Source of the DNA: Dehalococcoidia bacterium
Lineage (GTDB): Bacteria; Chloroflexota; Dehalococcoidia; Bin125
Assembly: GCA_965261225.1 (NCBI GenBank)
Contig: OZ253456.1
Location: forward strand, 1,190,099-1,254,098
Length of the DNA stretch: 64,000 nt
Direction of reading: 5' to 3'
The position numbers were made by a program, and so were the translations under genes. The notes beneath the pieces were generated by a model, which did no database searches, was not told the origin of the DNA, and worked only from the letters and a program-made list of their open reading frames with translations. Of this stretch, positions 15,665 to 31,802 are shown piece after piece (position 1 is the stretch's first letter; each line of letters opens with the position of its first letter).

Positions 15665-15983
15665 CTCGGTCCAGGCTACCCACGCCGCTCAGCACACGCA
15701 GGCGGCTGGTCGTATCGGGACGGTCGTCCGAGCCGTTGGGCCAGATCACGAACTGCGGTCTGGATCCTACGACAGTTTCAGCCGCGAATCGAACGGCCAG
15801 CAGCACTACTTGGCTACTGCCGGTGGTGAACGAAACAGCATGGCGCGTGTTGCCGGTTGCGGAGTAAGCCTGCGCCGGATCGGAGGTCTGGCTCAGATTG
15901 CCGACCGCGTAGCTGGCGGTACTACCGACGATCATCAAAGGCAGACTGGTGACGCTGTCCGGGACATCCGCGTCATCGGTGTA

Positions 15984-17612
15984 TCAAACCCGGACCTTGA
16001 ACTGCTTCCCCACGTCAGCGGCCTGGATCGCATAGGTCGCTGCGGTGGCGGTATTGATGTTGGACTCGCTGCGACCGTTGACACGTATCCACTGGTAGGT
16101 AAAGCCTGGGGTCGTCAGGCCATCCGTGTCGCTGATCGGCGACGTATCCACCTGCGCAGTTGTCCCCGGTTCCAGCACACCGGTGATGCGAGGTTGCCCG
16201 ACAGGTCGCGTATTGGTCTCCAGGTCGACACGCACGACATCGTTAACCATCCAGGTCACCCCGGAAACGGTCCACCTCAGCCTCGTGTTGGCCACGTTGG
16301 CGTCCCAGGCTCCCAGCTTCTTGCTCCCGACGCGGAGAGCGACGGTGTTCAGGAATTCGGCCGCTGGCGGGCTCTCGAAATCGATGTCGAGCATGTTCGA
16401 GCTCCTCAGCGCCAGGTTCCTGATGAAGTTGTTCTCGTCTCCAAACTCGAATGTCCGATTCGAAAGCGTCCCCGTGATTGAAGTCAACGCGTCGCTGTAG
16501 CCCTGGACGTTGGTTTCTACTTGCTTCACGGTCAGGCTGCTGCAGAAGGTGAGCTCGCAACCCGCCGTTGAGCCGTCCACCTTCTGGCCTGTGCCTGCCT
16601 CTACCGCGTTGGACGCGATGTCGATCCGGTCCCCCCCGGCGGACTTGACTTCAAGCGTGGACGCCGCGTTGGCGTTGATCGTGAATCCATCCGAATCGGT
16701 GTTGCCGGCCCTCACCACGTGGCGCAAGAGCGCGCGTGTTTCGTCGCGACTGCCCACATACTCGGCCCGAGCGGAACCGGATGGGAACGTCAGACCGATG
16801 TGTCCTCCCGAGACCACGACATTGCTGCTGAATGTCAGTTGCAGCTCGATGTTCTCCCCTGCCTTGTACGTATCGCCTGACAGCGGCGTGGATGAGACTA
16901 CGACCTCGGTAACGGTGATGATCGCTCTGGTGAACAACGCAAGTCGTACGTTCCCCGCTGCCGTGGTCCATGAGCCTCCGCTGAGCCTGCTCGCTGCATC
17001 GTCGCCGATTGTCCACATGCTCGATGAGGTCTGGTTATCCGACGTTGTGTGACCGACACTCAGGTCCCCGGCGCCAAATTCCTTCTGAACAACGACCCAG
17101 TACGTCGTGTTGGCCGCCAACTCGCAGGTAGCGCCGGAGCACTCAAAGTCCTCTGCGGTTGTCAGGTTGGCGTCTATGGCCGAGGGCGCGTTGAGCGTGG
17201 CGACGGGTACTCCAGGCGTAGCCCCGCTGTTGCTGTAGATCCAGGCGCCGACATCTACGTCGGCTCCTGCCGATATCCGCAACTGGACGTTGTCGAGGAA
17301 GTGAATGTCGTTCCCGGTCGTGAACGACTGTGCAATGAGCTGTCGGTTGGCAATCGCATGGCTGCCGTCTCCGGCGTCCGTCTCCGACAAGTTGCTGACC
17401 ACGGGACTGGGCGTCTGGGCCACGGAAGGAGTTGGCGGAGCGCTGGCGAACAGGGCTCCGAGGAACACGAACAGCACGCCCCCCAACAGCCGCAGAGGCC
17501 GTCCCGTTCTCCTGCCCGGAGGAGAACGCAAAGCGGCATTCAGGGACCTCGCCACCAGTTGGAGAAGCTCAAGGCGAGACAGTGACATGTGGATAATCTT
17601 CACTAGTCCCAC
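15984..17612 (-). CDS. Giant adhesin-like protein, N-terminal segment with signal peptide; ends at an in-frame TGA (15984-15986)
   Basis: The 542-aa ORF has an N-terminal signal (LLGGVLFVFLGALFASAPPTPSVAQ), the motif VSNLSETD...AQSFTTGN, and an Ig-like repeat ending FTYQWIRVNG...KQFKVRV. The same frame reopens just after the TGA (ORF 15543-15938, TASYAV...) with the same repeat family. Confidence 0.6.
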   Translation of the reverse strand: MGLVKIIHMSLSRLELLQLVARSLNAALRSPPGRRTGRPLRLLGGVLFVFLGALFASAPPTPSVAQTPSPVVSNLSETDAGDGSHAIANRQLIAQSFTTGNDIHFLDNVQLRISAGADVDVGAWIYSNSGATPGVPVATLNAPSAIDANLTTAEDFECSGATCELAANTTYWVVVQKEFGAGDLSVGHTTSDNQTSSSMWTIGDDAASRLSGGSWTTAAGNVRLALFTRAIITVTEVVVSSTPLSGDTYKAGENIELQLTFSSNVVVSGGHIGLTFPSGSARAEYVGSRDETRALLRHVVRAGNTDSDGFTINANAASTLEVKSAGGDRIDIASNAVEAGTGQKVDGSTAGCELTFCSSLTVKQVETNVQGYSDALTSITGTLSNRTFEFGDENNFIRNLALRSSNMLDIDFESPPAAEFLNTVALRVGSKKLGAWDANVANTRLRWTVSGVTWMVNDVVRVDLETNTRPVGQPRITGVLEPGTTAQVDTSPISDTDGLTTPGFTYQWIRVNGRSESNINTATAATYAIQAADVGKQFKVRV

Positions 17613-17769
17613 GTGTCAATGTTGGAGGATCGGATGTCGTGTCCATAGACTGACTGAGACATAGCATCGAGAAGACATTAGACATGTTCTGCCACGGTCA
17701 TATGAATGCTCTATCGAATGGCTTGCCCCACGTCGAAACGAGGACTCCGAGCGAACCCTGCAGAGCTAG

Positions 17770-18891
17770 GAACGCTCTGAACAAGTCTGCGTTCTGAGGC
17801 CTGGTTAGGATCGAGGCAGCGACCGCTGAAGAGAGCGCCTTGATGCAGGAACCGACGTTTGTCAGCCTGGAGTTCACGCACAAGAAGCGCAAGGCCCGGC
17901 GTGAGCGGTTCATGGAAGGGAGCGACGCGCTGGTTCCGTGGGGCACGCTGGCGGCGCGCGTCGAGCCGGTCTATCCCCAGCCGGGGCGCGGACGGCGACC
18001 GTACCCGCTGGCCGTGATGCTGCGCATCCATTGCGTGCAGCTCTGTCACAACCTCAACGACCCGGCGATGGAGGACTTGCTCTACGAGGCCGAGTCGGCG
18101 CCCGCTTCTGCGGGCTGAACCTGAGTGGGCCGATCCCGAACGAGTCGACGATCCTGCACTTCCGCCGCCTGTTGGAGCGGCATCAGCTGGGCGAGGCGCT
18201 GTTGGAGACGATCAACGCGCACCTGGAAGGCCGGGGACTGCGGCTGCAGCCCGGCACGATCGTGGACGCGAGCATCATTGCGGCGCCGTCCTCAACCAAG
18301 AACCAGCATCGCCAGCGCGACCCGGAAATGCACTAGACCAGGAAGGGCAACGAGTGGCGCCTTCGGGATGAAGTTGCATATCGGCGTGGACGCGGCGCTG
18401 GGCCTGACCCAGAGCCTGAGCACGACGGCAGCGAACAGCGCCGACGCGCCAAGGCTTGACGGCGTGGCGGGTCGCGATGCGTCCCGGACGCCGCCGCATG
18501 CGGCGCCCGACAGTCCGCTGGCCTAGCGCGAGCGCGAGCGGGCTTCGCTGCGGGCCAAGGCCGAGCACCCGTTCCTCTTCATCAAACGACGCTTCGGCTA
18601 CGACAAAAACCTGCCCCCGCGAAAGCGGGGGTGCGCTACCGCGGCCTGGCCAAGAATCATCAGCGGCTGGCGTTGCTCCTGGGCTTCACCAATCTGCTGA
18701 TCGCTGAGCCACGGCTCGCCTCAACCCCGGCGCACTGCGCCCCCGGCCCGGCTCGGCCCCAACCATCGGGCCAACCGGACCCTCGGCATCGCCCCACCCC
18801 ATCGTCCCCCACGCCAGTTCAACTCTGTGACGCCACAGCCCACGCCGAATCAGGACCAAATCCGATCGAGAACCCCCTGTTCAGAGCGTTC
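17770..18891. mobile_element. IS5-family insertion sequence (about 1.12 kb), degenerate
   Basis: The terminal inverted repeats are GAACGCTCTGAACAAG (17770-17785) and CCTGTTCAGAGCGTTC (18876-18891). The flanking tetranucleotides are CTAG and CTGG (an imperfect 4-bp target duplication of the CTAG type). The internal ORFs encode an IS5/InsH-like transposase. Confidence 0.75.
17840..18720 (+). pseudogene. IS5-family (InsH-like) transposase, fragmented over three or more frames
   Basis: Frame 1 gives FVSLEFTHKKRKARRERFMEGSDALVPW...RPYPLAVMLRIHCVQLCHNLNDPAMEDLLYE. Frame 2 gives ESTILHFRRLLERHQLGEALLETINAHLEGRGLRLQPGTIVDASIIAAPSSTKNQHRQRDPEMH. Frame 3 gives GMKLHIGVDAALGL...TTAANSAD. The C-terminal frame gives KAEHPFLFIKRRFGYDK...VRYRGLAKNHQRLALLLGFTNLLIAE. 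The DDE middle part is incomplete, and a hairpin (cccccgcgaaagcggggg) is inserted between GYDK and VRYRGLAKN. Confidence 0.75.
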
Positions 18892-20671
18892 CTGGGTCTG
18901 GGCGCTCATGCGACTGGTCGTCGCTGGATGCTGCGCGCTGGTCGTTCGGGACGCGTACGAATCGCTCCTCGATGAGGTGATCCAACACCAGCCTGGCATT
19001 GCCGCGTGCGGACTGTTGGACAGTGTCAAGCGAAATCTCCGGGTGTTGCGGAGCTTCATACGGATCATCGATCCCGGTGAAGTTGGAGATCTCACCGCGG
19101 CGCGCCCTGGCGTACATGCCCTTGGGGTCGCGCTCCTCGCAGACATGGAGCGGCGTGTCGACGAACACCTCGATAAAGCGCTCGGATCCGACCATGGTCC
19201 GTACCTCATTTCGCACAGCGCTGTAGGGGCTCACGGCCGCGCAGATTGCGACTCCGCCATGACGGACGATTTCCGAGGCGACGAATCCAATCCGGCGAAT
19301 GTTGGCGTCGCGGTCGTCTTTGGAGAAGCCCAGACCTTTGGATAGATGCGTTCTGACGACGTCTCCGTCGAGCACCGTCACCCGCCGCCCGTGCTCCATG
19401 AGCAGTCCCGTGAGCAGCTCGGCGGTTGTGGACTTGCCTGAACCGCTGAGACCGGTGAACCAGACGCACACCCCCTGGCGATGCTTCGGCGGATTGTGCT
19501 CAGCCACGATCCTGGCGACCTCGGGTAAGGCCATCCAGCTCGGCAGCGTTCGCCCCTGGCGCGAGTTCTCCTCACCCATCTGCGGCGGATTGGGCATGGC
19601 TCCACCCGCGCGTACGGGACGAACGGCGACCTCAGTGCGCGTCTCGCCGCCGGTGTCGTCCACCGTCCAGCGAACGGTCACAGCTCTCACTCCGCTCTCA
19701 TCGCGGTACCGGTCGACGAGTTCATGGGCGTCGTCTGGGCTGTGGATCGTGGCGCCCAAGGAGTCGTCGGGGGGACTGGCGTAGTCGCGGCCGACGATCA
19801 GATGGTTGGCGCCGTAGTTGCGTCGGATGATCGCGTGCCAGAGCGCCTCTCTCGGTCCGGCAAACCTCGTCGCCAACGGCAGCAGCGATAACAGCACCCG
19901 ATCGCTCTCGTAATAGTGGAGCGACAGCGTCCGGTACGTGCGGATGCGCGCGTAATGGTCCACCTCCCCGGTATTGGTCAACCCCGCTGCCGGATGAAGC
20001 AGCAGCACCCCGTCCAGACTCTCAGCGGCCCGCCGAGTGAGTTCCTCTTCGGCCCGGCGAAACGGATCGCAGGCATGGAAGGCCACGACGTTGCCTCGGC
20101 CGTAGGCGGAGAGCTCGGCCCGGGTCTCGCGCGGTGTTCGCCTCAGTTCGGTGAAGTCATAGTGTCGTGGAAGCTGCAACACCTGGAGCGGGCCGGATAC
20201 GTTCACCTTCCCCCAGCGCTGCATCTCGGACACGAGTGGATGCCGCGCGTCGCGAGTGCCGAGTACTTGATCCGCGAGCTCCAGCGGGTTCCACTCGTAC
20301 GCCTCCTGAATCGTCATGACCGCGAGCAGATCGTTTCGGGCATCGCGCAGGGCCACGTCAGTATCGAGTTTGACGGCAGAAGCGTCTTCGATGGACAGGG
20401 TTACTGGAACAGGAAACAGCATGCCGTCGGCCAGCCGCATATCGGCGACCGATCGACGGTAGTCGTCCTCGCCCATGAACCGGTCAAGAGGCGAGAACGC
20501 CCCCGTCGCAAGAAGCTCGAGATCGCAGGTCGCGCGTTCGGACAGCTGAATGCTGTCCAATCGTCCGGCGCGGTCCTTGAGATCGGCGAATCGCTCCTGC
20601 GGAGCCACGAGGTCGATCAGCTCGCCGCCGTAGGGCGCGATCAGGCCGGTCTGTTCGATCGAGGACGCCAT
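18881..20671 (-). CDS. sat/cysC: Fusion of an ATP-sulfurylase-like domain (N-terminal, catalytic motifs degenerate) and adenylylsulfate (APS) kinase (C-terminal)
   Basis: The 596-aa ORF's N-terminal half aligns with ATP sulfurylase (VVAF..., LSLLPLATRFAGPREALWHAIIRRNYGANHLIVGRDYA), but QTRN is replaced by HACD, HRAH by RRAE and GRDHAG by GRDYAS. The C-terminal half is canonical APS kinase (VWFTGLSGSGKSTTA, DGDVVRTHLSKGLGFSKDDRDANIRR, ISNFTGIDDPYEAP). The last three codons and the stop lie inside the IS5 right inverted repeat. Confidence 0.85.
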   Translation of the reverse strand: MASSIEQTGLIAPYGGELIDLVAPQERFADLKDRAGRLDSIQLSERATCDLELLATGAFSPLDRFMGEDDYRRSVADMRLADGMLFPVPVTLSIEDASAVKLDTDVALRDARNDLLAVMTIQEAYEWNPLELADQVLGTRDARHPLVSEMQRWGKVNVSGPLQVLQLPRHYDFTELRRTPRETRAELSAYGRGNVVAFHACDPFRRAEEELTRRAAESLDGVLLLHPAAGLTNTGEVDHYARIRTYRTLSLHYYESDRVLLSLLPLATRFAGPREALWHAIIRRNYGANHLIVGRDYASPPDDSLGATIHSPDDAHELVDRYRDESGVRAVTVRWTVDDTGGETRTEVAVRPVRAGGAMPNPPQMGEENSRQGRTLPSWMALPEVARIVAEHNPPKHRQGVCVWFTGLSGSGKSTTAELLTGLLMEHGRRVTVLDGDVVRTHLSKGLGFSKDDRDANIRRIGFVASEIVRHGGVAICAAVSPYSAVRNEVRTMVGSERFIEVFVDTPLHVCEERDPKGMYARARRGEISNFTGIDDPYEAPQHPEISLDTVQQSARGNARLVLDHLIEERFVRVPNDQRAASSDDQSHERPDPGTL

Positions 20672-20775
20672 AATTGCCTTCCTCCGAGCTCGCGGCGGGC
20701 GGGTGGACTGGTGACATCTGGGTCTTGAGCGCTGCCTCCGGAGACCTACGGCTCAGTGGCTCGACCCCGGATTTG

Positions 20776-21888
20776 TCAGCCTGAATCTCGCGCCTTCGCC
20801 ACCAGTCTCTCACTGGCTTCCCACAGCTTGCGACCGTTCTCCGGGTCGGCCGCACTGGCTGAGACTGACTTGGGTTGGGTCATGTGCAGGTACATCCCTG
20901 TGGAGGCGCCGGGTTCTTCAGCACAACAGAGGTAGATCACCGGCGCCACCGCCTCTTGCGGAGACTGGAAGATACGCCGGAACAGCGAATTCAGCAGCGG
21001 CCTCAGCAGTGGCGGAGCTTCTCTGCCGATATTCGTGGCTACTCCTCCGGGACAGATGGCATGTACAGCGACCTCTACCTCCTCGCCTGGGTTGAGACGG
21101 CGCGACAACTCGCGAGCGAACGTGCACTGGACCAACTTGCTGAAACCGTACTGCTTCAGGCTTCCCCTGATCCCGTAGTCAACGTATGCGCCCAGACGAT
21201 CGAAATCGATGTCCTCGGCAGATCGGTGTGATTCGGAAGTGATGAAGACGATCCGCGGGATCTCGCGGCCGCGGCCGCCCGGACGAACGACGCCGTCTCG
21301 CAGCCAGCGGTCGAGCATCACCCGATTTGCAAGGAAATGCACCGCGAACATCAGATCGTATCCTTGCCGGCTCCTCCTTGACCTGCTCGCCGCCAGGCCA
21401 GCGTTCAGCACAGCGATATCGATCTGCGTCCCCTGTTGAACCAGGCGGTCGCAGAAGCGATGCACGGATGCCAAATCCGAGAGGTCCACCTCCATCATCT
21501 CGACCGTCGTGGAACCTGAGAGCTGCACGATCTCGGCACGAGTTTCCTCGTGTCCCGGCCGGCACGCCAGGATCACATGGCCGCCGCGCCTGGCCAGCTC
21601 GATCGCCGCCGCCCTGCCCAAACCACTGTTCGCTCCGGTCACCAGGCAGGTCTTGCCCTCAATTCGCACGTCTTGCGGGACGGCGCTCACCGGAGATTGT
21701 TTCGGCTGCCTGAGGTCTCGCACAGCCGTGACAATGGCGTTCACCAGGTTGCTATGACCTGAGCGTCTGTTGTCTCCGGCAGCATCACTCACGGCCGCGT
21801 TCGCTTTCGAGGCTTCACTCGCTCTACTCGAAAGGGATGCCGTACCTGCGACGATAGGAGCAGAAGTCCTTGTCGACCGTTTCCGCAT
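20776..21888 (-). CDS. Short-chain dehydrogenase/reductase (SDR) family oxidoreductase
   Basis: It has the Rossmann motif TCLVTGANSGLGRAAAIELARRGGHVILACR, an NAG-like segment (DIAVLNAG) and an active-site-region YxxxK (YGFSKLVQ). The listed ORF extends to 22029 and overlaps the sulfotransferase gene, so the start is probably internal (MRKRS at 21888 or VNAIV at about 21744). Confidence 0.7.
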   Translation of the reverse strand: MRKRSTRTSAPIVAGTASLSSRASEASKANAAVSDAAGDNRRSGHSNLVNAIVTAVRDLRQPKQSPVSAVPQDVRIEGKTCLVTGANSGLGRAAAIELARRGGHVILACRPGHEETRAEIVQLSGSTTVEMMEVDLSDLASVHRFCDRLVQQGTQIDIAVLNAGLAASRSRRSRQGYDLMFAVHFLANRVMLDRWLRDGVVRPGGRGREIPRIVFITSESHRSAEDIDFDRLGAYVDYGIRGSLKQYGFSKLVQCTFARELSRRLNPGEEVEVAVHAICPGGVATNIGREAPPLLRPLLNSLFRRIFQSPQEAVAPVIYLCCAEEPGASTGMYLHMTQPKSVSASAADPENGRKLWEASERLVAKARDSG

Positions 21889-23089
21889 CCAGCCCGAAAT
21901 CGGACAGACGATACGTATGTCTGCCAAAGCGATTCTGTGGGTGCGCGCTTGCGTATTGCTCAGCGATACGGGCGGCCACATCACCGAATGAGATCTGAGC
22001 GTGCTCGTAAATTCGCCGGAGTTGCGCAATGGGATCCTCGATCAGATCGTAGTAGGACACATCCATACTTTGGTCGGGGTCCAGCATGTCCCGCGTTCGC
22101 ATGTTCAGTTCCACCATGCGTTGTGTCTTTCTGCTCCAATGCCTGCCGATTTCGCCCGGGTCAATGGCATCGCTGAACATGCCGCGCCCATGAGCGACCA
22201 TGCTGCAGAACGAGGGCAACGTTTTGCGTGGATCGCGATGGGTCTGGACGATCAACGCACGGGGGAAATACTTGAGAAACAGATCGAGGTATTCCATGTG
22301 GTGAGGCGTCTTGAGCACCCAGGCGCGGCCGGGATGCCGCCAACACAGGATCTTCAGCACCCTGGAGAAGTGCTCATAAACCTGGGTGTGGTCCTGTTCC
22401 TCCAGCCAGCGAGAATATGCAGGGACGTGCATCATCGCCTCCGGCGCCTGGCTCATGAAACTCAGATCGAGCAACATGACGTCTTCTTCCGGTTCCTGAT
22501 GGTCGACCGGATGCACCATATTGAACTCTGGGGACAGGTAGGCGAGCAGTCGTTGCGCCAGCATCGCTCGTGTTGTTCGGACGGCAGAACCGGGAGTCAT
22601 GTCGCGGTCGGCAGGAATGGGTTCAAGCGCCTCCGCACTCGACACTCCTCGAATGTCCGGATTCGAGTACAGCAGTCGATGCAGAAAAGTTGTGCCGGTA
22701 CGTTGCAATCCAGCGATCAGAATGACCGAGCCGAGATCGACATCATGGATCTCAGGATGCTGCTTGAACAGTTCCTCTATTCGTAGACGCTGAATCAACG
22801 CGCTAGTCAGCCGCGACCGTTGGATCAGCTTGCCGGTCGGAGTCAAGTCGGCCTCGCCATTGATCGACTCGACGAGCACTGCCAATGCCCGAACGTGACT
22901 ATCGTTCCCGAAGTCCGTTAGACCGGATTTGCGAGTCGCCTCGCCGATGAGGGTCTCGACGACCAGATCACTCGACCAACCAAGCTGTCGGGCAGCGCGG
23001 CCCATGGAGTTGAATGCCCTGACGGGGAGAGGGCGGTGGGGTTGAACGTAGTTCGTGGAAGTTTCTACACGGCGGCTGAGCATGGCCAT
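21824..23089 (-). CDS. PAPS-dependent sulfotransferase family protein
   Basis: It has the 5'-phosphosulfate-binding loop LIAGLQRTGTTFLHRLL and the 3'-phosphate-binding motif THRDPRKTLPS, with an overall sulfotransferase fold pattern (KTPHHMEYLDLFLKYFP). The listed ORF extends to 23182, so the likely start is MAMLSRR at 23089. Confidence 0.8.
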   Translation of the reverse strand: MAMLSRRVETSTNYVQPHRPLPVRAFNSMGRAARQLGWSSDLVVETLIGEATRKSGLTDFGNDSHVRALAVLVESINGEADLTPTGKLIQRSRLTSALIQRLRIEELFKQHPEIHDVDLGSVILIAGLQRTGTTFLHRLLYSNPDIRGVSSAEALEPIPADRDMTPGSAVRTTRAMLAQRLLAYLSPEFNMVHPVDHQEPEEDVMLLDLSFMSQAPEAMMHVPAYSRWLEEQDHTQVYEHFSRVLKILCWRHPGRAWVLKTPHHMEYLDLFLKYFPRALIVQTHRDPRKTLPSFCSMVAHGRGMFSDAIDPGEIGRHWSRKTQRMVELNMRTRDMLDPDQSMDVSYYDLIEDPIAQLRRIYEHAQISFGDVAARIAEQYASAHPQNRFGRHTYRLSDFGLDAETVDKDFCSYRRRYGIPFE

Positions 23090-23103
23090 ATCCGGGCACT
23101 CAG

Positions 23104-24300
23104 TCAGTTCTTCAGACTGCTCAGTTTGACCAGCCGGGTGCGGGGTTGGGGATGCTCCTTCGCCTGAACCCAGCGGAAACACATGGTCCCCGACGTGTGG
23201 CCGGCGGTCTCGATCCAGTTGGGCAGGCCGGGATCGGCGTGGGCAACCACTAAACGAACGGCTTCGTCGGCGTCATAGACCGCGAGGTGCTTGTTGGTGT
23301 GAATCCGATGATGACGATAGTCCAGGGATTCCATCCAGTAGTTGTTCAACTGAAAGTTCCAGTACTCGCACTCAGGAGGCAAGACTTCGATCACAAGCGC
23401 TTCGTCCTCAGCAACAGCCCAGTGGCTGTGATAATACCTGATGTTCGGATCACCCCCGGCGCTCAGCGATCGCTCCGGGTCGAACTCCGGCAACTTGTTG
23501 CTGTGCTGTTGAAAGTCGCGCGCCCACTTGGCGAACAACAGCGGCGCACCCACGACCAGCGCTCCCACCTTCTGCAACCCCTCGTCAAGTTGTTTCGCGG
23601 TAAGCGAGGAAGAGCGACGCTCGTCTTCCGGGCAGTTGATCCGCTCGATCTGCAGTTCCGCCGGGATCTCAGTTTGCCGATCGAGAAACGTCTGGCGCAC
23701 GACCAGTGTGCCGGTCTCAGGCGTCATCGGCAGCCAATTCCTGGCTTGCGGGCGGCGACTCAGGATCAGCTCGAAGTTTCCCTGCTCGTCCATCTCGATC
23801 TGGCTGGAATCGATGTGGCCGGTGGGCGGCAACCCTCGTCCCTGGCCATAGTTTCCGCTCTGCGTGCCAAAGCTGAGGAAGGCAATTGTGTTGCGGCGGC
23901 CGCTGATCTGGTACTCGTATGTGCCATCCAGTGCCGCCGTCAGATAGAAGTTATCGGGATTGTCGGCGCCCAACTTGGTGAACTCATTGACCACTCGGTG
24001 CAGGACCGGCGCCTGTGGATCGGCGTGCTCGATGAACGCCATCAAGCCGGCCCGCGCGATCCGGCTGAGATATCGATATCCCTCCGCCTGGGCCACTGCG
24101 TCTCGAGGCGTCCCGGGAAACTGCAAGGCTGCTCCAGCAGCCTTCAACGTGTCACAGAATTCATTCCATGACTCGCCACTCGTCACACGGCGCGCAGCGA
24201 GATCGTCTTCAGTCATCCCGCGCAGCTTCCAGATCAATAACGAGATGCGTCGATATAACGTCAGCAGAGCGATCACAAATTTCCGCATGGCGTGCCTCAA
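23104..24300 (-). CDS. Conserved hypothetical protein (398 aa), family not recognised
   Basis: This is a long non-repetitive ORF of ordinary composition (codon usage not computed). It is co-oriented with, and partly overlaps, the sulfotransferase/SDR genes. I cannot assign a family from sequence alone. Confidence 0.45.
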   Translation of the reverse strand: MRHAMRKFVIALLTLYRRISLLIWKLRGMTEDDLAARRVTSGESWNEFCDTLKAAGAALQFPGTPRDAVAQAEGYRYLSRIARAGLMAFIEHADPQAPVLHRVVNEFTKLGADNPDNFYLTAALDGTYEYQISGRRNTIAFLSFGTQSGNYGQGRGLPPTGHIDSSQIEMDEQGNFELILSRRPQARNWLPMTPETGTLVVRQTFLDRQTEIPAELQIERINCPEDERRSSSLTAKQLDEGLQKVGALVVGAPLLFAKWARDFQQHSNKLPEFDPERSLSAGGDPNIRYYHSHWAVAEDEALVIEVLPPECEYWNFQLNNYWMESLDYRHHRIHTNKHLAVYDADEAVRLVVAHADPGLPNWIETAGHTSGTMCFRWVQAKEHPQPRTRLVKLSSLKN

Positions 24301-24558
24301 CGGGGTCGCGTGACATCTGGTCGTTGGACATCGTAACGCTTGTCACCGGCCGGTTAATCTCGACACGGACGTCGAGCGACCGCTTGCAATGTCATGGAAT
24401 CACGCTCCGCGCTTGCCGATGGCGTATATCCGACAGGCCGACAGACGAGCAGCATGGAGGAACGTCTCTTCCGTCGAATCGCCGCCGCTACGACAAGCTG
24501 GATATGGATCTGCGCGTCCTCGGACGGGCCATGCTTGTTGTCGATGACGATTGACTCA

Positions 24559-24995
24559 GGCCTGTTCACATAGAACGCTCGCGACGGCCAACCCCAAACC
24601 AAGCCCTGCGCCGCAGCTCCGTCCCTGCCGAGCCACGCTACCATCAGAACGCATGAGCGCTTGAAAGACGGAGCCAATGTCAACCCCACACCCAACCACA
24701 ACCCGGTACGCCCCCGACCACCCGCCAACCCCCGCTCACCGCGTGATAACCCAGCGAACCGTTTCGTCCCAATCCGCACAGATCCGAACAAATCCGAACA
24801 GCAACCGACCAGAAATCCCTCAACCAGACTGAAAAAACCTGAAAAAACCTGAAAGAGCTGAAACACGATCTCCAGCAATGCACGGGAGATCGCCCCCGAA
24901 CCACCCCAGAAAAAAAGTCCCACCTGAAACCTGAAACCGCCAATGACCACAACACACGCCTCGACCGAACCCATCCCCGGCTGTGTGAACAGGCC
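24559..24995. repeat. Intergenic segment bounded by the inverted 12-mers GGCCTGTTCACA and TGTGAACAGGCC, with internal A-rich direct repeats (CTGAAAAAAC x2, CTGAAA x4, ATCCGAACA x2)
   Basis: The bounding inverted repeat is at 24559-24570 and 24984-24995. CTGAAAAAACCTGAAAAAACCTGAAAGAGCTGAAACAC lies at 24829-24866 and CCTGAAACCTGAAACC at 24922-24937. The region ends 36 bp upstream of the GMC oxidoreductase ATG, which has a strong GAGGAGG Shine-Dalgarno sequence. Confidence 0.4.
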
Positions 24996-25031
24996 CTAGC
25001 CTGACCAGACCCTGCTGAGGAGGTCACAGCG

Positions 25032-26543
25032 ATGTACGACGACATCATCATCGGTGCGGGTTCGGCTGGGGCGGTGATTGCGGCAAGACTCTCGGAGGAT
25101 CCCGGACGCCAAGTGCTGTTGCTCGAGGCGGGACCCGACTACAGCCGGATTGAAGATCTGCCGCGCGATCTGGTCAGGCCCTGGATCTCGTGGGTGGATC
25201 ACGATTGGGGCTTTAGCGCCAATGCACGCCACGGTCGCGAGCTTCGCATGCATCGCGGCAAGGTCATGGGCGGCACCTCCGCCATCAATGGGGCAGTCGC
25301 GCTGCGCGGCGTTCCCGCCGACTTCGACGCGTGGGTCGAACTGGGCTGTGATCAGTGGTCGTACGAAGACGTGCTGCCCTGGTACCGCAAGCTCGAGTCG
25401 GATCCCGAGGGCGGCGACTTCCACGGCTCGCGCGGCCCGGTCCCGATCGAACGCAGCCCCAAGGACTCGTGGCAGCCGCTGCACCGCGCCTTCTACGACG
25501 CCTGCCGCGAACGAGGATTCGATGATGTCTGGGATCACAACCGCCCCGATGCGACCGGCGTCGGACCGTGGCCACGGAACCGCCGCGAGGGCCTGCGGAT
25601 CTCGACCAACATCGCCTACCTGATGGGCATCCGCGACCGGGAACATCTGACTATCCGTCACGGAGTGCTGGTCGACCGTGTGCAGCTCGAACATGGTCGC
25701 GCCACGGGTGTCGTGCTTGCGGACGGGAACGTGATCGAAGCGAAGCGAGTGTGTGTCAGCGCCGGCGCTGCCGTGACGCCGGCGATCCTGCTTCGCTCGG
25801 GGATCGGCCCAGCCGAGAAACTGACACCGCACGGAATCAAACAGGTGCACGTGCTACCCGGAGTCGGCGAAAATCTGATCGACCACATCGCGATCGGTGT
25901 AGCGGCATCGGCGAAGCCGGACATTGCCCACGACCCCGCCGTGGTCTTCGAGGTTGGCCTGCGCTACACGGTGCCCGGCAGCGACCTGTTCAATGACATG
26001 CAGATCGCGCTGTCGACAAACTGGGATCCGGAGCACATGCGCGGATTCAGCAATGCACCGCGTGGATATCCGGGCATCAGCTTCGCCGCGATGCTGCAAC
26101 GTCCGTACTCGCGTGGCTCGGTCACGCTGCGCTCGTCCGATCCCGAGGAGCAGCCCAACATCGACTTGAACTATGGCCATCCCGAAGATTTGCGTCGGCT
26201 CATGGAAGCTGCGCGACTCTGCTGGGATCTGATGCACAGCGACCAGATGGCGCCTTATGTCGATGAGATCGTTGCGCCTCAACCTGGGCTGATCGAATCG
26301 GACCTGGCCCTGGCCGACTACGTCCTTAGCGCGGCATCGACGGCGTGGCACATCAGCGGGACCGCGCGGATGGGACAGGCTACGGATCCGTTGGCGGTCA
26401 CCGATCAACAGGGACGAGTCCACGGATTGGACGGCCTGCGGGTGGCCGACACGAGCCTGCAACCGGACATCGTGAGCTGCAACACGAATCTGACCAGCAT
26501 CATGTTCGGCGAACGGATCTCCGACTTCATGCGTTCGGCATGA
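25032..26543 (+). CDS. GMC-family FAD-dependent oxidoreductase (choline dehydrogenase-like)
   Basis: It has the N-terminal FAD fingerprint MYDDIIIGAGSAGAVIAARLSED...VLLLEAGPDY, a GMC signature region (GKVMGGTSAINGAVALRG) and a C-terminal catalytic-domain pattern (HISGTARMG). The Shine-Dalgarno GAGGAGG is 7 nt upstream. Confidence 0.85.
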   Translation: MYDDIIIGAGSAGAVIAARLSEDPGRQVLLLEAGPDYSRIEDLPRDLVRPWISWVDHDWGFSANARHGRELRMHRGKVMGGTSAINGAVALRGVPADFDAWVELGCDQWSYEDVLPWYRKLESDPEGGDFHGSRGPVPIERSPKDSWQPLHRAFYDACRERGFDDVWDHNRPDATGVGPWPRNRREGLRISTNIAYLMGIRDREHLTIRHGVLVDRVQLEHGRATGVVLADGNVIEAKRVCVSAGAAVTPAILLRSGIGPAEKLTPHGIKQVHVLPGVGENLIDHIAIGVAASAKPDIAHDPAVVFEVGLRYTVPGSDLFNDMQIALSTNWDPEHMRGFSNAPRGYPGISFAAMLQRPYSRGSVTLRSSDPEEQPNIDLNYGHPEDLRRLMEAARLCWDLMHSDQMAPYVDEIVAPQPGLIESDLALADYVLSAASTAWHISGTARMGQATDPLAVTDQQGRVHGLDGLRVADTSLQPDIVSCNTNLTSIMFGERISDFMRSA

Positions 26544-26573
26544 TTCCGCACTGATCGCGTGCGGCCCAATTGG

Positions 26574-26906
26574 CTACTCCGACCCGCGCACGGCGCACAC
26601 TGGCACCTCAATGTCCAGCAGCGGCGCGTACTGCTGTCCACCGAAGCAGTCGCTGTCTTCAAGGTCGCCCGACGAGACGGGCCTGGGGATCGAGAACTTG
26701 ATCGCCAGCGCGTTATCACAGTTGAAGAAGAGCACGTCCTCCTCGTGTTGCTTGTAGATCTCCGCGACCAGCTTCTTGTTCAGCACCCCGGAATCGCGTA
26801 CCTGTTCGTACACGTCGACGTCATCGAACATGATGTCGAAGGTCAGCACGAAGGGTCCGGCGTTCTTGCTGCGCACCAGCTTGGTGACCTCCCAGAGCTT
26901 TGCCAT
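26574..26906 (-). CDS. Small conserved protein that co-occurs with AtuA-like proteins (DUF4387-like)
   Basis: The 110-aa ORF lies immediately downstream of the AtuA-like gene on the same strand and has non-repetitive composition (MAKLWEVTKLVRSKNAGPFVLTFDIMFDD...). Confidence 0.45.
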   Translation of the reverse strand: MAKLWEVTKLVRSKNAGPFVLTFDIMFDDVDVYEQVRDSGVLNKKLVAEIYKQHEEDVLFFNCDNALAIKFSIPRPVSSGDLEDSDCFGGQQYAPLLDIEVPVCAVRGSE

Positions 26907-26921
26907 GACGCGCCTCTACCT

Positions 26922-28292
26922 CTATACCGTCGCCATCTGAATGGGGAACATCTCGTAGGGATCAGCCGGTTCGACGACGTGGTTCAGGTTGAACCTGTGA
27001 GTCGCGCCCCGATGCAGTACTGCGGGGCTGTACGGGAACGCCAGGGCGCTGATCAAGCCGTGCCATTCAGGCACCGGGAAATGCAGCGCCAGGTGGTGCG
27101 CGGTTTCGGCCAGTTGACCGGCCAGGTCGGACTCGGGTGCGGTTACCTCGATGATCAGACACACCTCGTGGGCAGGCGTCGTCACCGGCTCCAATGCGCC
27201 CATGACTCCGTCTCGACCGTAGACGCGGAAGAAGACCGAGTAGTGCTCGTCGATCTCCAGGCCGTCGAACGCATCCCTGATCCGCAAGGCCAATCGCTCC
27301 TTCATCCGGCCGAGCCAGTCATCGAGTTGGCGGATGATGATTGGGTCTCTGATCGCCCCGATGATTATGCTCTGGTAACCCGCCAGTTCCACTCCCTCGA
27401 GCTTCACCGTGTAGCGTTCCGCCGGAACCCATCGGCTGTTGGAGACCTTGACGGCCCGGTCCGAGACGGCCTCATAGACCGAATCCGTGGTGTCGAGCAT
27501 CCCCGACGACTCGTACAGGTGGAAGGGATCGGCGTTCTCGTACAGCGTGTGAGAGGCGACGCTCTGCGGCGTGCACCAGAGTTCGTCGGCCGGTGGTTCG
27601 ACGATGAAGTGGTCGTTGCGGACAGTGGCAAACATGCAATCGGGCGACTTTCTCAGAGCCACGGACGCAGCTCCGCACTCCAGGATCTTTGCGGCGTGCC
27701 AGACCGGGCCTTCAGCGAATCCCCGCGCCAGGGGCATGGCTGCAAAGAGCGTGGTGTCGCTGGCTCTGCCGCCGACGATCACCTCTGCGCCATCATCCAG
27801 CGCCCTGGCGATCGGCTCGGCGCCCATCATGCCGACGATGTGCAGGCTCTGGTCGATCACTGCTTCGTCCAGATGCGGCGCCGGCTTGAGCGGCGTGATC
27901 TTGCCCGCTCGGAGTTTTGACTTCAGGTACTCCCGGTCCTGCTCCGAGCGGATCACCGCGAGGTTGAACTGCAGTTCCTCTTCCCTGGCGATCTCCTCGA
28001 CGATCTCCACCGTCCACTGGACATTCAGGTCCCCGCCGGCCGACCCGGCTGAGCCGATGATCACCGGAATGCCCGCCGCTCGCCCGGCCTGGAGGATGAG
28101 CCGGATGTCCCGTTTGACCGCGGTCCGGGGAAAGTTGCTCCTCCCGGTCGCGAGGGCGTCCGGCCCGCCGTCGGTGGTGCCCGCGTCGGCCGCGATGAAG
28201 TGCGGCTCCCATCCCATGGCCCGCTTCAACGACGCTTCCAGGAAGCCGGATCCGATCATCCCCGTCGCCGAAAGCGCTCTGATCTCGTCCAT
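26922..28292 (-). CDS. AtuA-like (DUF1446) family protein
   Basis: The N-terminal MIGSGFLEASLKRAMGW...IAADAGTTDGGP and the overall length of about 455 aa match the acyclic-terpene-utilisation AtuA family pattern. The listed ORF extends 48 nt further to 28340. Confidence 0.6.
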   Translation of the reverse strand: MDEIRALSATGMIGSGFLEASLKRAMGWEPHFIAADAGTTDGGPDALATGRSNFPRTAVKRDIRLILQAGRAAGIPVIIGSAGSAGGDLNVQWTVEIVEEIAREEELQFNLAVIRSEQDREYLKSKLRAGKITPLKPAPHLDEAVIDQSLHIVGMMGAEPIARALDDGAEVIVGGRASDTTLFAAMPLARGFAEGPVWHAAKILECGAASVALRKSPDCMFATVRNDHFIVEPPADELWCTPQSVASHTLYENADPFHLYESSGMLDTTDSVYEAVSDRAVKVSNSRWVPAERYTVKLEGVELAGYQSIIIGAIRDPIIIRQLDDWLGRMKERLALRIRDAFDGLEIDEHYSVFFRVYGRDGVMGALEPVTTPAHEVCLIIEVTAPESDLAGQLAETAHHLALHFPVPEWHGLISALAFPYSPAVLHRGATHRFNLNHVVEPADPYEMFPIQMATV

Positions 28293-28486
28293 GAGGAGTC
28301 TCCCAAATCGCAAATGCCCGAAGTCCCACCGCAGCATCACCAGGGCAGGATTTGCGTCGGAGCATACCGAGTTCTCGTACCGCTCTCAAAGGACTCGACT
28401 ATTAGGGACCACGCCACCCTCGACCCAGACTCCGAACCCTCGTGCTTGCACTCGACATCACGCCAACAGATCGGGGAGGGCGCCGA

Positions 28487-28978
28487 TCATTCTGTCCGGA
28501 CAGATAGCCTCCCTTCCACAAGCCGGTCGCCGTCTGCGTCCACCCAGACGCCGTAGATGCCCATCCGTTGCGCGCCCCCGATGTCGTGCTCCAGGTTGTC
28601 GCCGACCATCCAGGCTTCGGTCGGCCCCACGCCCAGCGCTTCGAGCGAATGCAGGAAGGCTCGCTCGTCCGGCTTCCCGACCCCGAACTCTTCCTCGATC
28701 TGGATGTGGTGGAAGAAGCGGTCGAGGCTGAACCGTTCGATCTTTCGGCGCTGATTCCTGGTCTGGCCATTGGTCAGCAGACCGAGGCAGATGTCCGCCT
28801 CTCGAATCCGCTGGAGCGTGTCGATCACTCCGGGCAGGGGCTTCACCGCCTCCTCCCTGACGACGGTGAAGCGGTCGGCCAACTCGCGACAGAGCCTGCG
28901 CCAGACCTCGTCGGGGTTGCCGTACGAATCGAGGATGGTGTCGTCAAGGTCGAGGAGGAGCGCGTTGGGGAGATCCAT
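28487..28978 (-). CDS. HAD-superfamily hydrolase (subfamily IA)
   Basis: Motif I is LLLDLDDTILD, motif II is LGLLTNG, and motifs III/IV are VGK...MVGDNLEHDIGGAQRMG. The probable start is MDLPNALLLDLDDT. Confidence 0.75.
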   Translation of the reverse strand: MDLPNALLLDLDDTILDSYGNPDEVWRRLCRELADRFTVVREEAVKPLPGVIDTLQRIREADICLGLLTNGQTRNQRRKIERFSLDRFFHHIQIEEEFGVGKPDERAFLHSLEALGVGPTEAWMVGDNLEHDIGGAQRMGIYGVWVDADGDRLVEGRLSVRTE

Positions 28979-29304
28979 GGCGTCTTCGATCGTAGTTGGA
29001 TAGGGGCGGGTGAGATCGAGCCGGGTCGCAAGCACGCCTGCTCGGCGCGGCTCCGGACCTGCCCGATTGCCTCGGACTCGCCGACGAAGTAGCGCAGCCG
29101 TCGTCCGCCCGTGAGTGGGAAACGGTTCGTATCAGGGAATAGCGGAATAGCGGACCACACGATCGAGTGTTAGAAGTCAACGTCAGCGGCGTGTCTGGGG
29201 AACTAGAGGCCCGGCCCACTGGCTAAGCGCTAGCACCGACAACAGTTCATCGGCCCTCAGCGTCTTCACAGGTCAAGCGTAAACGTCAACTCGAAGTTTC
29301 TCGA

Positions 29305-30948
29305 TTAAGTCAAGTTTGGTGGGCCGGACTGGACAAAATCGAGAACCGATGTTTCGTCTCTGGTCACGCCGTCTGAAGGCATTGGAATGGTGTATCTCAA
29401 CGTCACGTCGTCATCGAGGACCTCGATTGATTTGACGAAGTTCCGAATCAGCGCCTTGCGCTCAGGAAACGTTCCCGCTTCGAGGAAGCCGCGGAAGTCG
29501 GACACGTACTCGGCAATCTCGGTGCTGGTCGGGAAGTCGGCTTTGCGCTGCCGCAACTGACGGTCCGCATCTTCCTGGGTGGCGGCGAGTTGATCCTCGC
29601 GCTGGCGCAGCGTGAGGATGCGCGGCGACAACGCCTGCATCGTCAGCTCCGTTGTCTCTAGCGCTTCATAGAGTCGTTCGAGCCGGCTGCGGACACCTGC
29701 CAACTCCGCCTCGATGGCCGTAAGTTGGCCGCCGAGCTCACCCGCCCAGGCGTCGATCTCCTCGGAGACCAGCACGATCAACTCAGTGATCGTCTCATCG
29801 GTCAGAATCCGTCCGAGGATGCGCTCGACAATGCGTGCCTCCACCCGGTCGGCGTTCAGGTAACGAGCGGAGAAGGAGCCGGCCCCTTCGCGCAGCAAGG
29901 TCCTACAGACGTAATAGAAGAAGCGGCCGCTCTTTGCTCCCTGGCCGGTGTAGGGATTGCCACAGATTCCGCAGCGGAGCAAACCACTGAGTAGGAACTT
30001 GCTGCCGACGCGGGCAGGCCGCTGCTTCTTCGGCGCGCGCTCCTGCAATCCCTGCTGGACCTCATTGAACAGTTCCCGCGAGACCAGGGCTTCCCAGGCG
30101 CCCTCGGTCCGTACCGGGTCGGGCTTCTTGTCGCCCGTCGTCGTGCGGCCCCAGATTGCCGTGCCTGTGTAGGCCTCATTGGTCAAGACGTAATGCAGAC
30201 TGTTACGTCGCCAACGCTTCCCCTTATTCGTGATTCCCCGCTCGTTGAGCTCGGCCGCAATCTCCTTCAGCCCAACGCCGCGCAGCGACTTCTCGAAGAT
30301 CTCCTTGACGATCGGACCAGTGTCCGGGTCGACCTGCAGTGTCGGTCGCTCCTTGGCGCCGTCCAGCACCTTGATCCGACGGTAGCCGAAGGGCGCCTTC
30401 GAACTCAAGAAGAATCCGCGCGAGGCGGCCTCGCGCATGCCGCGGGTCACTTCCTGGGCGAGATGCTCGGAATAGAACTCGTCCACGCTCTCGATGCTCG
30501 CCTCCATCAGCTTGCCGGTCGGCGTGTCGTCGGCGTGCTCAGTAACCGAGGTGACGCGGATCCCGCGCCGGCGCAACATCGATTTGAAGGCGACCGCGTG
30601 CTCACGCTTCCGAGTGAAACGAGAGAACTTCCAGACCAGTATCTCCTGCAACGGCGCGTCGGGTTGAGCCGCCTCATCCAGCATCTTGCGAAACTGGGGC
30701 CGGTCGGCGACGCGACCGCTCTCGGCCTCGTCTATGTACTCGCGCTCAATCAAGTAGCCATTCCGCTCCGCGTAGTCGCGAAGGGCGCGCAGCTGCGCCG
30801 CGATAGAGAGGTCGACATCCTGGCGGTCGCTGGAGACGCGGGCATAGAGGGCGGCGCTAAGGGGCGGGACTGCGGGATTCACTGATTGATGCTCTCGTTT
30901 CACGTCGCTGGGATAGGCACGTGAATGATCTGGCGTTCCAATGCTCAT
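29305..30948 (-). CDS. Large serine recombinase (resolvase-type catalytic domain, recombinase domain, zinc ribbon and coiled coil)
   Basis: It has the catalytic N-terminus AALYARVSSDRQ...SIAAQ...L..YA, the recombinase-domain pattern GKRWRRNSLHYVLTNEAYTG, a zinc ribbon LLRCGICGNPYTG...FYYVCR, and a C-terminal coiled coil. The start may be an internal GTG near 30870. Confidence 0.85.
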   Translation of the reverse strand: MSIGTPDHSRAYPSDVKREHQSVNPAVPPLSAALYARVSSDRQDVDLSIAAQLRALRDYAERNGYLIEREYIDEAESGRVADRPQFRKMLDEAAQPDAPLQEILVWKFSRFTRKREHAVAFKSMLRRRGIRVTSVTEHADDTPTGKLMEASIESVDEFYSEHLAQEVTRGMREAASRGFFLSSKAPFGYRRIKVLDGAKERPTLQVDPDTGPIVKEIFEKSLRGVGLKEIAAELNERGITNKGKRWRRNSLHYVLTNEAYTGTAIWGRTTTGDKKPDPVRTEGAWEALVSRELFNEVQQGLQERAPKKQRPARVGSKFLLSGLLRCGICGNPYTGQGAKSGRFFYYVCRTLLREGAGSFSARYLNADRVEARIVERILGRILTDETITELIVLVSEEIDAWAGELGGQLTAIEAELAGVRSRLERLYEALETTELTMQALSPRILTLRQREDQLAATQEDADRQLRQRKADFPTSTEIAEYVSDFRGFLEAGTFPERKALIRNFVKSIEVLDDDVTLRYTIPMPSDGVTRDETSVLDFVQSGPPNLT

Positions 30949-31028
30949 TGGAATAGTGTTCCGAACATACTATCCGATACGCCGGACCAGATGCTGAAAC
31001 AGACCTCACACACCACGCGTCATGCTGT

Positions 31029-31400: not shown

Positions 31401-31511
31401 CAGAACCTGGACAGATAGGACGATGTCGACTGAGTCCAACAGACCGTCGGCGGCGCTGCCGGAGTGGTGCATAGCGCTTTGCCAGACGCCAAATGGAGGT
31501 ACGCTCGGCGA

Positions 31512-31791: not shown

Positions 31792-31802
31792 GGGAGAGTC
31801 CG

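Follow-up and report, generated by a model that had tools for sequence, protein, structure and literature searches.

A putative operon for PAPS-dependent sulfation of a lipophilic acceptor in a Dehalococcoidia bacterium, with a core found in about ten phyla

The closest solved relatives of the sulfotransferase treated here are mycobacterial Stf proteins. Stf3 of Mycobacterium tuberculosis, of the same broad Stf family, sulfates an alcohol derived from menaquinone, and Stf9 of M. avium reportedly carries palmitate in the acceptor cleft of its crystal structure; we know of no acceptor even for Stf1. According to a review, M. tuberculosis has four sulfotransferases, stf0 to stf3, and published tables place Rv3531c-Rv3528c within its cholesterol-catabolic cluster; between Rv3531c and Rv3532 lies a KstR operator. 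In the present study, a four-gene operon with an Stf1-like sulfotransferase is described at 18881-24288 on the minus strand of a 64,000-nucleotide stretch of a Dehalococcoidia genome (assembly GCA_965261225.1, contig OZ253456.1, positions 1,190,099 to 1,254,098), below called the window. It encodes a DUF1214-like protein, a sulfotransferase dependent on 3'-phosphoadenosine 5'-phosphosulfate (PAPS), a short-chain dehydrogenase/reductase (SDR) and a fusion of an ATP-sulfurylase-like (Sat-like) domain with adenosine 5'-phosphosulfate (APS) kinase (Table 1). On balance we regard it as likely that these genes form a functional operon whose products O-sulfate a lipophilic hydroxyl compound with PAPS as donor. 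The enzyme families as such are known, but the module itself is uncharacterised everywhere; our literature searches found no paper describing this cassette or its cross-phylum spread in sponge symbionts, and none joining DUF1214 with a sulfotransferase.

The four genes of the cassette

Gene content was derived from the listing of open reading frames (ORFs) and from Pfam scans of the window ORFs. The four genes are separated, in coding order, by 14, 31 and about 104 nt, and their starts and spacings agree with the genes called in two relatives, L001 and L002 (the 80 loci compared below come from metagenome-assembled genomes, and the labels L001 and L003 denote the same locus). The sulfotransferase ORF spans 21824-23182, with the real start placed at 23089, and the SDR ORF spans 20776-22029, with a GTG at 21792 as the real start. 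A block of nucleotides just 5' of the first ATG is conserved in comparison with L002, L005 and L006; no sigma-70 consensus promoter was found upstream of the cassette, and an Rfam search found no RNA element. The original prediction, which was made from the sequence of this region, named gene classes that are all present by Pfam, and it rightly put the PAPS-synthesis gene, the sulfotransferase and the SDR on one strand. Its order, with the Sat/CysC fusion leading, has to be revised, since the coding strand reads DUF1214-like, sulfotransferase, SDR, Sat/CysC: the fusion gene is the last of the operon, and the SDR gene sits between it and the sulfotransferase gene. The leading gene of the cassette, which is also its most conserved one (ORF 23104-24288, minus strand), had been left unnamed.

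The sulfotransferase matches PF13469 (Sulfotransfer_3) with 157 bits (cut-off 27, E 1.1e-45), and its Pfam matches are limited to PF13469, PF00685 and PF17784; more than 3,000 significant homologues were found. The alignments with two solved structures take in nearly the full length and the N-terminal helical extension: residues 43-410 match residues 12-382 of PDB entry 2ZQ5 (E 2.5e-54), and residues 49-419 match residues 35-409 of 2Z6V (E 7e-48). We take these structures to be M. tuberculosis Stf1 (Rv3529c) and M. avium Stf9, respectively. The sequence was checked for lost PAPS-binding residues, and both loops proved to be kept. The 5'-phosphosulfate-binding loop is GLQRTGTT (residues 127-134), in which each of G127, L128, R130, G132, T133 and T134 deviates in at most one of 80 homologues, 2ZQ5 included. 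The 3'-phosphate-binding motif, HRDPRKTLPS, aligns with the same segment in 2ZQ5 and 2Z6V, and its H284, R285, P287 and S293 are conserved to the same degree in the 80 homologues.

The SDR belongs to a subfamily resembling protochlorophyllide reductase, its best PDB matches being 3RD5 and protochlorophyllide reductases. It also resembles NCBIfam PRK06197, with a score below the cut-off.

The DUF1214-like protein is recognised by Pfam only barely: DUF1214 (PF06742) scores 26.1 bits against a cut-off of 25, a marginal and partial match in which no single stretch passes alone. Sequence comparison also matches it to PDB entry 6ANS, an uncharacterised Burkholderia cenocepacia protein (E 6e-114; 49% identity in Foldseek). 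An AlphaFold model built on 58 diverse sequences (predicted local distance difference test, pLDDT, 86) superposes on 6ANS with a template-modelling (TM) score of 0.86-0.92, and on Vibrio DUF1254/DUF1214 proteins with a TM score of 0.44. The Foldseek search of this fold returned only uncharacterised DUF1214/DUF1254 structures, with no functional analogy and no thioesterase-, hydrolase- or lyase-like fold among them. The family is large, with more than 3,000 significant homologues and 950 clusters at 50% identity (E <= 1e-30); the matches listed are 76-84% identical, and their source names are Gammaproteobacteria, Chloroflexi, Acidobacteria and Acidimicrobiia. Some 70 positions do not vary even in homologues of 45-52% identity; many of them are Arg, Asp, Glu, His or Tyr, and these invariant polar residues suggest that the protein either has enzymatic activity or binds a specific ligand. 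In the cross-phylum (sponge-type) proteins described below, residues 2-22 form a basic amphipathic helix, which free-living homologues lack.

In the fusion protein, all three Pfam domains (PUA_2, ATP-sulfurylase and APS_kinase) are matched over their full length, the APS_kinase profile being covered from 1 to 152 of 152, and the protein scores 691 bits against NCBIfam NF004040, a bifunctional equivalog with a cut-off of 669. Automated annotation would presumably call it bifunctional. The best structural matches are 2GKS (E 7e-182) and 3CR8 (E 1.5e-97); a look-up of the exact sequence gave no record. The sulfurylase catalytic motif is degenerate, however, reading HACDPFRRAE versus QTRNPxHRxH (QTRNPMHRVH in 2GKS), and GRDY versus GRDH. 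The HACDPFRRAE substitutions are common to all five related Dehalococcoidia, and the canonical motifs are kept in the cassette-linked copies of Acidimicrobiales, in 2GKS and in 1I2D. The kinase P-loop, GLSGSGKST, is intact in the window and in all copies compared. In comparison with four relatives, the ratio of non-synonymous to synonymous substitutions (dN/dS) is 0.32-0.42 for the Sat-like domain versus 0.12-0.13 for the APS-kinase domain. In the window and L001 the stop codon of the gene is lost (TAG to CAG), which adds a tail of 19 residues. Because of the degenerate sulfurylase motif, the fusion is probably an APS kinase with a relaxed, non-catalytic Sat-like domain, making PAPS from APS only. 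In the protein of 3CR8 the sulfurylase-like domain is presumably inactive too, and the window fusion is apparently alike. For annotation, this implies that Sat/CysC fusions above equivalog cut-offs can have a dead sulfurylase site. A dedicated supply of activated sulfate, as originally predicted, holds insofar as a PAPS gene is linked in the operon to the sulfotransferase; a full supply does not, given the degenerate sulfurylase motif.

Distribution, transfer and distant relatives of the core

A scan of one genome per species revealed at least 437 relatives, of which the best 80 loci are considered here. The genes for the DUF1214-like protein, sulfotransferase and SDR are adjacent in that order in 78 of these, and the two exceptions end at a contig end. 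The hosts, whose taxonomy was checked, belong to about ten phyla: Dehalococcoidia, Tepidiformaceae and Caldilineaceae, and furthermore Nitrospirales, Binatia, Gamma- and Alphaproteobacteria, several orders of Acidobacteriota, Thermodesulfobacteriota/Dadabacteria, Spirochaetia, Acidimicrobiia including Candidatus Poriferisodalis, Rhodothermales and Bacteroidota. Across all of them the DUF1214-like protein is 73-96% identical, with a mean column identity of 84%. The triad core is under purifying selection, with dN/dS values (relative to the same four genomes) of 0.08-0.23 across the three genes, i.e. 0.08-0.12 for the DUF1214-like gene, 0.17-0.23 for the sulfotransferase and 0.19-0.21 for the SDR. 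Several record titles indicate sponge microbiomes ('lac_sponge', and the genus names Poriferisodalis and Porisulfidus), and the IRC, RHO and SB bin series, we assume, come from sponge studies as well.

Additional genes vary between lineages. An SRPBCC gene (Polyketide_cyc2, with a hydrophobic-ligand-binding fold) is present in 35 of the 80 loci, most of which also have a second SDR gene. A synteny search for sulfotransferases with Sat/CysC neighbours, as the original prediction had suggested, showed that the link recurs, although only in the window's Dehalococcoidia clade, where the fusion gene lies downstream, and in 11 Acidimicrobiales loci, where it lies immediately upstream. Acidimicrobiia loci of the Poriferisodalis type have two tandem APS-kinase-like genes about 5.8-7 kb downstream of the match (L056, L057, L059, L061, L070, L073 and L076-L079), one with the canonical P-loop GLSGSGKST and the other with the variant GLTAAGKST. 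None of the 80 loci was found to pair the cassette with genes for glycosyltransferases, polysaccharide export or sugar nucleotides.

The cassette also moves as a unit. Nucleotide comparison with five related Dehalococcoidia genomes defines a shared block of 5.5 kb at 18932-24425 (87-94% identity), beginning about 140 nt 5' of the first ATG and running as far as the stop codon of Sat/CysC, where similarity ends. At least four different flanks surround this unit in close relatives: L001 is collinear with the window over 12582-29322, with sortase genes in place of the recombinase; in L004 the side with restriction-modification, pentapeptide-repeat and recombinase genes (window 29316-35473) is joined straight to the cassette and the block 24338-29316 is missing; L002 and L005 have a trp operon downstream; and the flank of L006 is different again. 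Further away, the cassette of L024 sits between queA/argG and rluD. In the cassette tree, sequences group by family-level lineage but are scrambled relative to taxonomy at depth: Dehalococcoidia turn up at four or more positions, and the clade of the window is sister to sequences from Vicinamibacterales, Nitrospirales and Binatia. The GC content of the cassette follows that of the host, from 0.47 to 0.68. Within the window, GC at third codon positions (GC3) is 0.68-0.77 for the cassette versus 0.83-0.91 for genes at 45-64 kb. No carriage by phage was found among IMG/VR viral contigs. These patterns, in particular the conflict of the cassette tree with taxonomy, indicate old and repeated horizontal spread, followed by vertical inheritance and local rearrangement, rather than a recently acquired island bounded by IS5 and a recombinase.

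More divergent relatives occur in free-living bacteria. In Pseudomonas (L083), the genes for the DUF1214-like homologue and sulfotransferase overlap by 4 nt and are followed by a gene for an unknown protein of about 320 residues, with an SRPBCC gene and a PAPS_reduct-family (CysD/CysH-type) gene nearby. Cupriavidus necator (L085) has a cysD-like gene (PAPS_reduct family) and cysN/C divergent from genes for the DUF1214-like protein, sulfotransferase, SDR and an unknown protein, again with an overlap of 4 nt between the first two. On a plasmid of Tsukamurella tyrosinosolvens (L089), cysD, cysN/C and a regulator gene are divergent to genes encoding a DUF1214-like homologue (388 residues), an SDR (259 residues), a sulfotransferase (385 residues) and a hypothetical protein (179 residues). 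The sulfotransferase and DUF1214-like protein of the window are 34% and 31.5% identical to those of Tsukamurella; the Tsukamurella SDR has no BLAST match to the window SDR and matches only that of Cupriavidus. The link of the module to PAPS-pathway genes thus recurs through non-orthologous enzymes, Sat/CysC in Acidimicrobiales and cysD/cysNC in Cupriavidus and Tsukamurella.

The Tsukamurella sulfotransferase shares 66% identity with 2ZQ5, and the layout of its locus matches the order and annotations of M. tuberculosis Rv3531c, Rv3530c, Rv3529c and Rv3528c. A full-library search with hidden Markov models and a look-up of cluster names did not recover Rv3531c itself; those of the ten representatives checked that bear names are marine or soil Proteobacteria.

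A different setting is seen on sphingomonad megaplasmids, viz. plasmid p1 of Novosphingobium sp. ES2-1 (L087) and pNL2 of N. aromaticivorans (L088), where a DUF1214-like gene lies with genes for a TonB-dependent receptor, an SDR and a class III extradiol dioxygenase, with CysQ nearby and, in pNL2, also a gene for a FadD3-family ligase. With these neighbours, the DUF1214-like family may have a catabolic setting for steroids or aromatics, one in which the protein can act without sulfation.

Proposed function of the cassette and its alternatives

We propose the following order of reactions. The APS-kinase domain of the fusion would convert APS to PAPS beside its consumer, the APS coming from a separately encoded sulfurylase, since the Sat-like part of the fusion no longer has its catalytic motif. 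The SDR would set the oxidation state or stereochemistry of a carbonyl or hydroxyl group of the acceptor, and the Stf1-like sulfotransferase would then move sulfate from PAPS to that hydroxyl. The DUF1214-like protein may act as an obligatory enzymatic or substrate-handling partner, and is possibly held at the membrane by its N-terminal helix. For the acceptor, a lipophilic alcohol is our best guess. A lipid-like compound is suggested by the SRPBCC partners and the SDR partners of the protochlorophyllide reductase/retinol dehydrogenase type, by the lack of glycan-synthesis genes in the 80 loci, and by the steroid or hydrophobic contexts of distant relatives; the palmitate reported for Stf9 and the menaquinone-derived acceptor of Stf3 point the same way.

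Several observations weigh against this proposal. Genes for SRPBCC and a second SDR, as seen in 35 other loci, are absent from the window. The supply of sulfate is partial only, given the degenerate fused sulfurylase, and the Sat/CysC gene of L001 is broken into two ORFs, a hint that the fourth gene may be dispensable. The window SDR is from another SDR subfamily than those of Tsukamurella and Cupriavidus, so that the redox step may not be equivalent. On the sphingomonad megaplasmids, no sulfotransferase gene was found within 7 kb of the DUF1214-like gene, so that sulfation is not a constant need of this protein. Finally, the sponge-type core is a divergent relative of the Mycobacteriales module, but for Rv3531c itself the tie is drawn from gene order, sizes, annotations and the Tsukamurella locus.

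A catabolic or detoxifying role, in which the module alters a sterol, terpenoid or aromatic alcohol from the host or the environment during uptake or degradation, is conceivable but unlikely. It would agree with the position of Rv3529c-Rv3531c in the cholesterol-catabolic cluster of M. tuberculosis, downstream of a KstR operator, and with the sphingomonad homologues next to genes for a TonB-dependent receptor, SDR, extradiol dioxygenase, FadD3 and CysQ. Sterols are abundant in sponge tissue. In addition, among the free-living hosts are Pseudomonas, Cupriavidus, Hydrocarboniphaga and Nevskia, known for degrading hydrophobic compounds. The sponge-type cassettes, however, do not lie within catabolic clusters, as illustrated by the queA/argG and rluD neighbours in L024 and the trp genes in L002, and spending PAPS on a compound that is then degraded would be energetically odd.

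It is doubtful that sulfation serves as a transient activation, with sulfate as a leaving group, the DUF1214-like protein carrying out an elimination, substitution or cyclisation, and a final product without sulfate. Precedents for such chemistry are the formation of terminal olefins by CurM/OLS systems and sulfate-assisted aziridine formation. The tight coupling of the DUF1214-like and sulfotransferase genes, with the 14-nt gap in the window and the 4-nt overlaps in Pseudomonas and Cupriavidus, would suit this mechanism, as would the enzyme-like invariant polar residues of the DUF1214-like protein, including many Arg that could bind sulfate, and the SDR beside the sulfotransferase is akin to a logic of ketoreductase followed by sulfotransferase. 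Yet the DUF1214-like gene precedes rather than follows the sulfotransferase gene, the sphingomonads have the protein without a sulfotransferase, and its only fold matches are the uncharacterised DUF1214/DUF1254 structures, none of them thioesterase-, hydrolase- or lyase-like.

Sulfation of a glycan, exopolysaccharide or protein tyrosine, by which the cell surface would mimic the sulfated matrix of the host, appears very improbable. Sponge matrices are rich in sulfated glycans, and the window is full of adhesin-like surface proteins with cadherin and fibronectin type III (fn3) domains; nevertheless, the genes for glycosyl transfer, polysaccharide export and sugar nucleotides are missing from the cassette surroundings in all 80 loci, SDR and SRPBCC partners are typical of small hydrophobic substrates, and the nearest solved relatives are of the Stf type, not carbohydrate or tyrosyl sulfotransferases.

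A further-reaching possibility, to which we give little credence at present, is that the triad core is a symbiosis determinant, shared horizontally across essentially all major lineages of high-microbial-abundance sponges and making one common sulfated lipid (a sterol, isoprenoid or long-chain alcohol), which would also explain the orphan Stf1 operon of M. tuberculosis. Such a common lipid could serve in host recognition or evasion of phagocytosis, or be the bacterial source of some sulfated lipids attributed to sponges. Few gene sets are common to phylogenetically disparate sponge symbionts, and the degree of identity of the DUF1214-like protein over about ten phyla, together with the transfer of the cassette between them, makes the cassette a strong candidate for a common host-adaptation function. 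With its 3-5 genes it is amenable to heterologous expression. It also offers comparative leverage on Stf1 and, if the homology to Rv3531c is true, on Rv3531c, both orphan genes of the cholesterol-catabolism region of M. tuberculosis, as well as on the DUF1214-like family, which has a solved structure (6ANS) and no activity assigned in its annotation.

Surroundings of the cassette and comparison with known systems

Highly improbable, and largely refuted by synteny, is the explanation of the original prediction that the whole of 18.9-29.0 kb is one horizontally acquired biosynthetic island, Stf0-sulfolipid-like and bounded by IS5 and a serine recombinase: all its genes do lie within 10 kb with mobile-element genes on the flanks, and L001, the closest relative, is collinear over the block, but the GMC, AtuA, DUF4387 and HAD genes are missing from 79 of the 80 other cassette loci, the recombinase side joins the cassette directly in L004, the extra genes are on the other strand or in another transcription unit and have a higher GC3, the GMC gene is split in L001, the IS5 copy is frameshifted and lineage-specific, and the window has no Stf0-type domain and no sulfolipid-1 genes. 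The outer coordinates of that cluster do coincide with real gene ends, 18881 being the Sat/CysC stop and 29035 the HAD start. What holds of the original prediction is a horizontal origin, as judged from the tree, the multiple flanks and GC3, for the conserved unit 18932-24425; the mobile elements do not mark its boundaries, nor do the GMC, AtuA-like/DUF4387 and HAD genes, which join the cassette only in the closest relative and are missing in L004, form one cluster with it.

Table 1. Coordinates of the cassette genes and of other features in the window
Feature	Position	Strand	Basis or remark
Decayed IS5-family transposase, neighbour	17840-18710	+	DUF772 split over two frames, DDE_Tnp_1 faint in third
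Gene 4: Sat-like/APS-kinase fusion, 596 aa	18881-20671	-	PUA_2 + ATP-sulfurylase + APS_kinase
Gene 3: SDR, 338 aa, GTG start	20776-21792	-	Pfam adh_short
Gene 2: PAPS-dependent sulfotransferase, Stf1/Stf9 type, 421 aa	21824-23089	-	Sulfotransfer_3, E 1e-45
Gene 1: DUF1214-like protein, 394 aa	23104-24288	-	Marginal partial Pfam DUF1214 match
Upstream leader/promoter region moving with cassette	24289-24425	-	Nucleotide similarity to L002/L005/L006 stops at 24425
GMC oxidoreductase, neighbour	25032-26543	+	GMC_oxred_N/C; choline-dehydrogenase/MftG-like, below cut-offs
DUF4387 protein, neighbour	26574-26906	-	Pfam
AtuA-like protein, neighbour	26922-28340	-	Pfam
HAD-IA hydrolase, neighbour	28487-29035	-	Pfam HAD_2
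Large serine recombinase, neighbour	29305-30948	-	Resolvase + Recombinase + Zn_ribbon_recom
PIN-domain ORF	31029-31586		
Pentapeptide-repeat protein	32791-33759		
Type ISP restriction-modification enzyme	33756-36902		
Tyrosine integrase	42513-43646		
Helicase	54116-56473		
DUF6094 methyltransferase	57585-58613		
Rad52-like protein	62549-63535		

The individual neighbours differ in their distribution. The IS5 remnant is common to L001 (92% nucleotide identity) and is not beside the cassette in L002 and L004-L006. A recombinase homologue with 87% identity directly adjoins the cassette in L004 and is missing from the other 79 loci. Besides the window, L001 is the one locus with a GMC gene next to the cassette, there broken into two ORFs; the pair of DUF4387 and AtuA-like genes occurs among the loci only in L001/L003, with a GC3 in the window of 0.83-0.87 versus the lower cassette values. 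In L001, at 7073-8451 and 12420-14407, the GMC and Sat/CysC genes are each split and HAD is matched over half its length, which suggests that gene decay is ongoing around, and not within, the three core genes. An HAD gene whose product is 54-64% identical to the window HAD lies about 5 kb upstream of the cassette in L009, L011, L014-L016, L047 and L081 (Tepidiformaceae/Chloroflexota). This constant upstream position is probably lineage synteny, yet it is a second, independent co-occurrence of HAD and cassette. The HAD hydrolase was also considered as a phosphatase for 3'-phosphoadenosine 5'-phosphate (PAP) and rejected, as CysQ is a member of a different superfamily.

Between the cassette leader and the GMC gene lies a non-coding, C/A-rich segment of 440 bp (24556-24996) with short repeats, e.g. 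CCTGAAA(A)AACCTGAAA; it is missing from the otherwise collinear L001, and no second copy was found in the window or the loci. An ORF at 24354-24974 was rejected as a gene, as it has no Pfam match, is of low complexity and is mostly missing from L001, and the stretch is taken as non-coding.

The entire window looks like a plastic genome region. The part at 29305-44432 is dense in mobility and defence genes. Giant surface-type proteins (1043, 636, 1395 and 2710 residues) are encoded at 10623-15664 (minus), 38140-42327 (minus) and 45368-53500 (plus); they have cadherin, Big_9, cadherin-like and fibronectin-III domains, of the eukaryote-like adhesion kind reported for sponge symbionts, and their GC3 of 0.68-0.91 may reflect mixed origins.

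Among known systems, the Stf0/sulfolipid-1 and Stf3/sulfomenaquinone pathways of M. tuberculosis resemble the proposed one in that a dedicated cytosolic sulfotransferase uses PAPS to sulfate an acceptor of the lipid type. Their partner genes (trehalose, pks2, papA, mmpL8 and a cyp128-like P450) are absent from the window, whose sulfotransferase is instead partnered by the DUF1214-like protein and SDR. No Stf0-type domain and no polyketide synthase, acyltransferase or MmpL gene was found among the Pfam-scanned window ORFs, and the original analogy with Stf0-type sulfolipid synthesis gives way to a homology of the Stf1/Stf9 type.

The Sat-like/APS-kinase fusion shares the architecture of PUA-like, sulfurylase and APS-kinase domains with the Sat/APS kinase of Aquifex aeolicus (2GKS), from which it differs in its catalytic motifs, and it also shares its architecture with the fusion of Thiobacillus denitrificans (3CR8). 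In the proteobacterial pairs, represented by 6ANS, L083 and L085, the DUF1214-like protein is about 50% identical to that of the window and shares its fold, and a sulfotransferase with 32-35% identity is encoded immediately downstream. These pairs differ in their free-living hosts, in the extra conserved protein of about 320 residues encoded after the pair, and in the lack of an N-terminal helix, and they are far more divergent among themselves than the sponge-type cassettes.

The Mycobacteriales Stf1 module is most alike in content, since a DUF1214-like first gene, an SDR and an Stf1-type sulfotransferase are found in one operon, as in the window. Its order, however, is DUF1214-like, SDR, sulfotransferase, whereas the sulfotransferase precedes the SDR in the window; its SDR is of the classical type with 259 residues, and the window SDR, with 338 residues, is not orthologous; and its DUF1214-like protein lacks the N-terminal amphipathic helix. 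In Tsukamurella the module is, like that of the window, linked to PAPS-synthesis genes, there cysD and cysN/C; in M. tuberculosis it lies within the KstR cholesterol regulon, unlike the window cassette. The sponge-type cassette is therefore distinct from its mycobacterial and proteobacterial relatives in gene order, SDR subfamily and the N-terminal helix of the DUF1214-like protein, and in the window clade also in its kinase-only Sat-like fusion.

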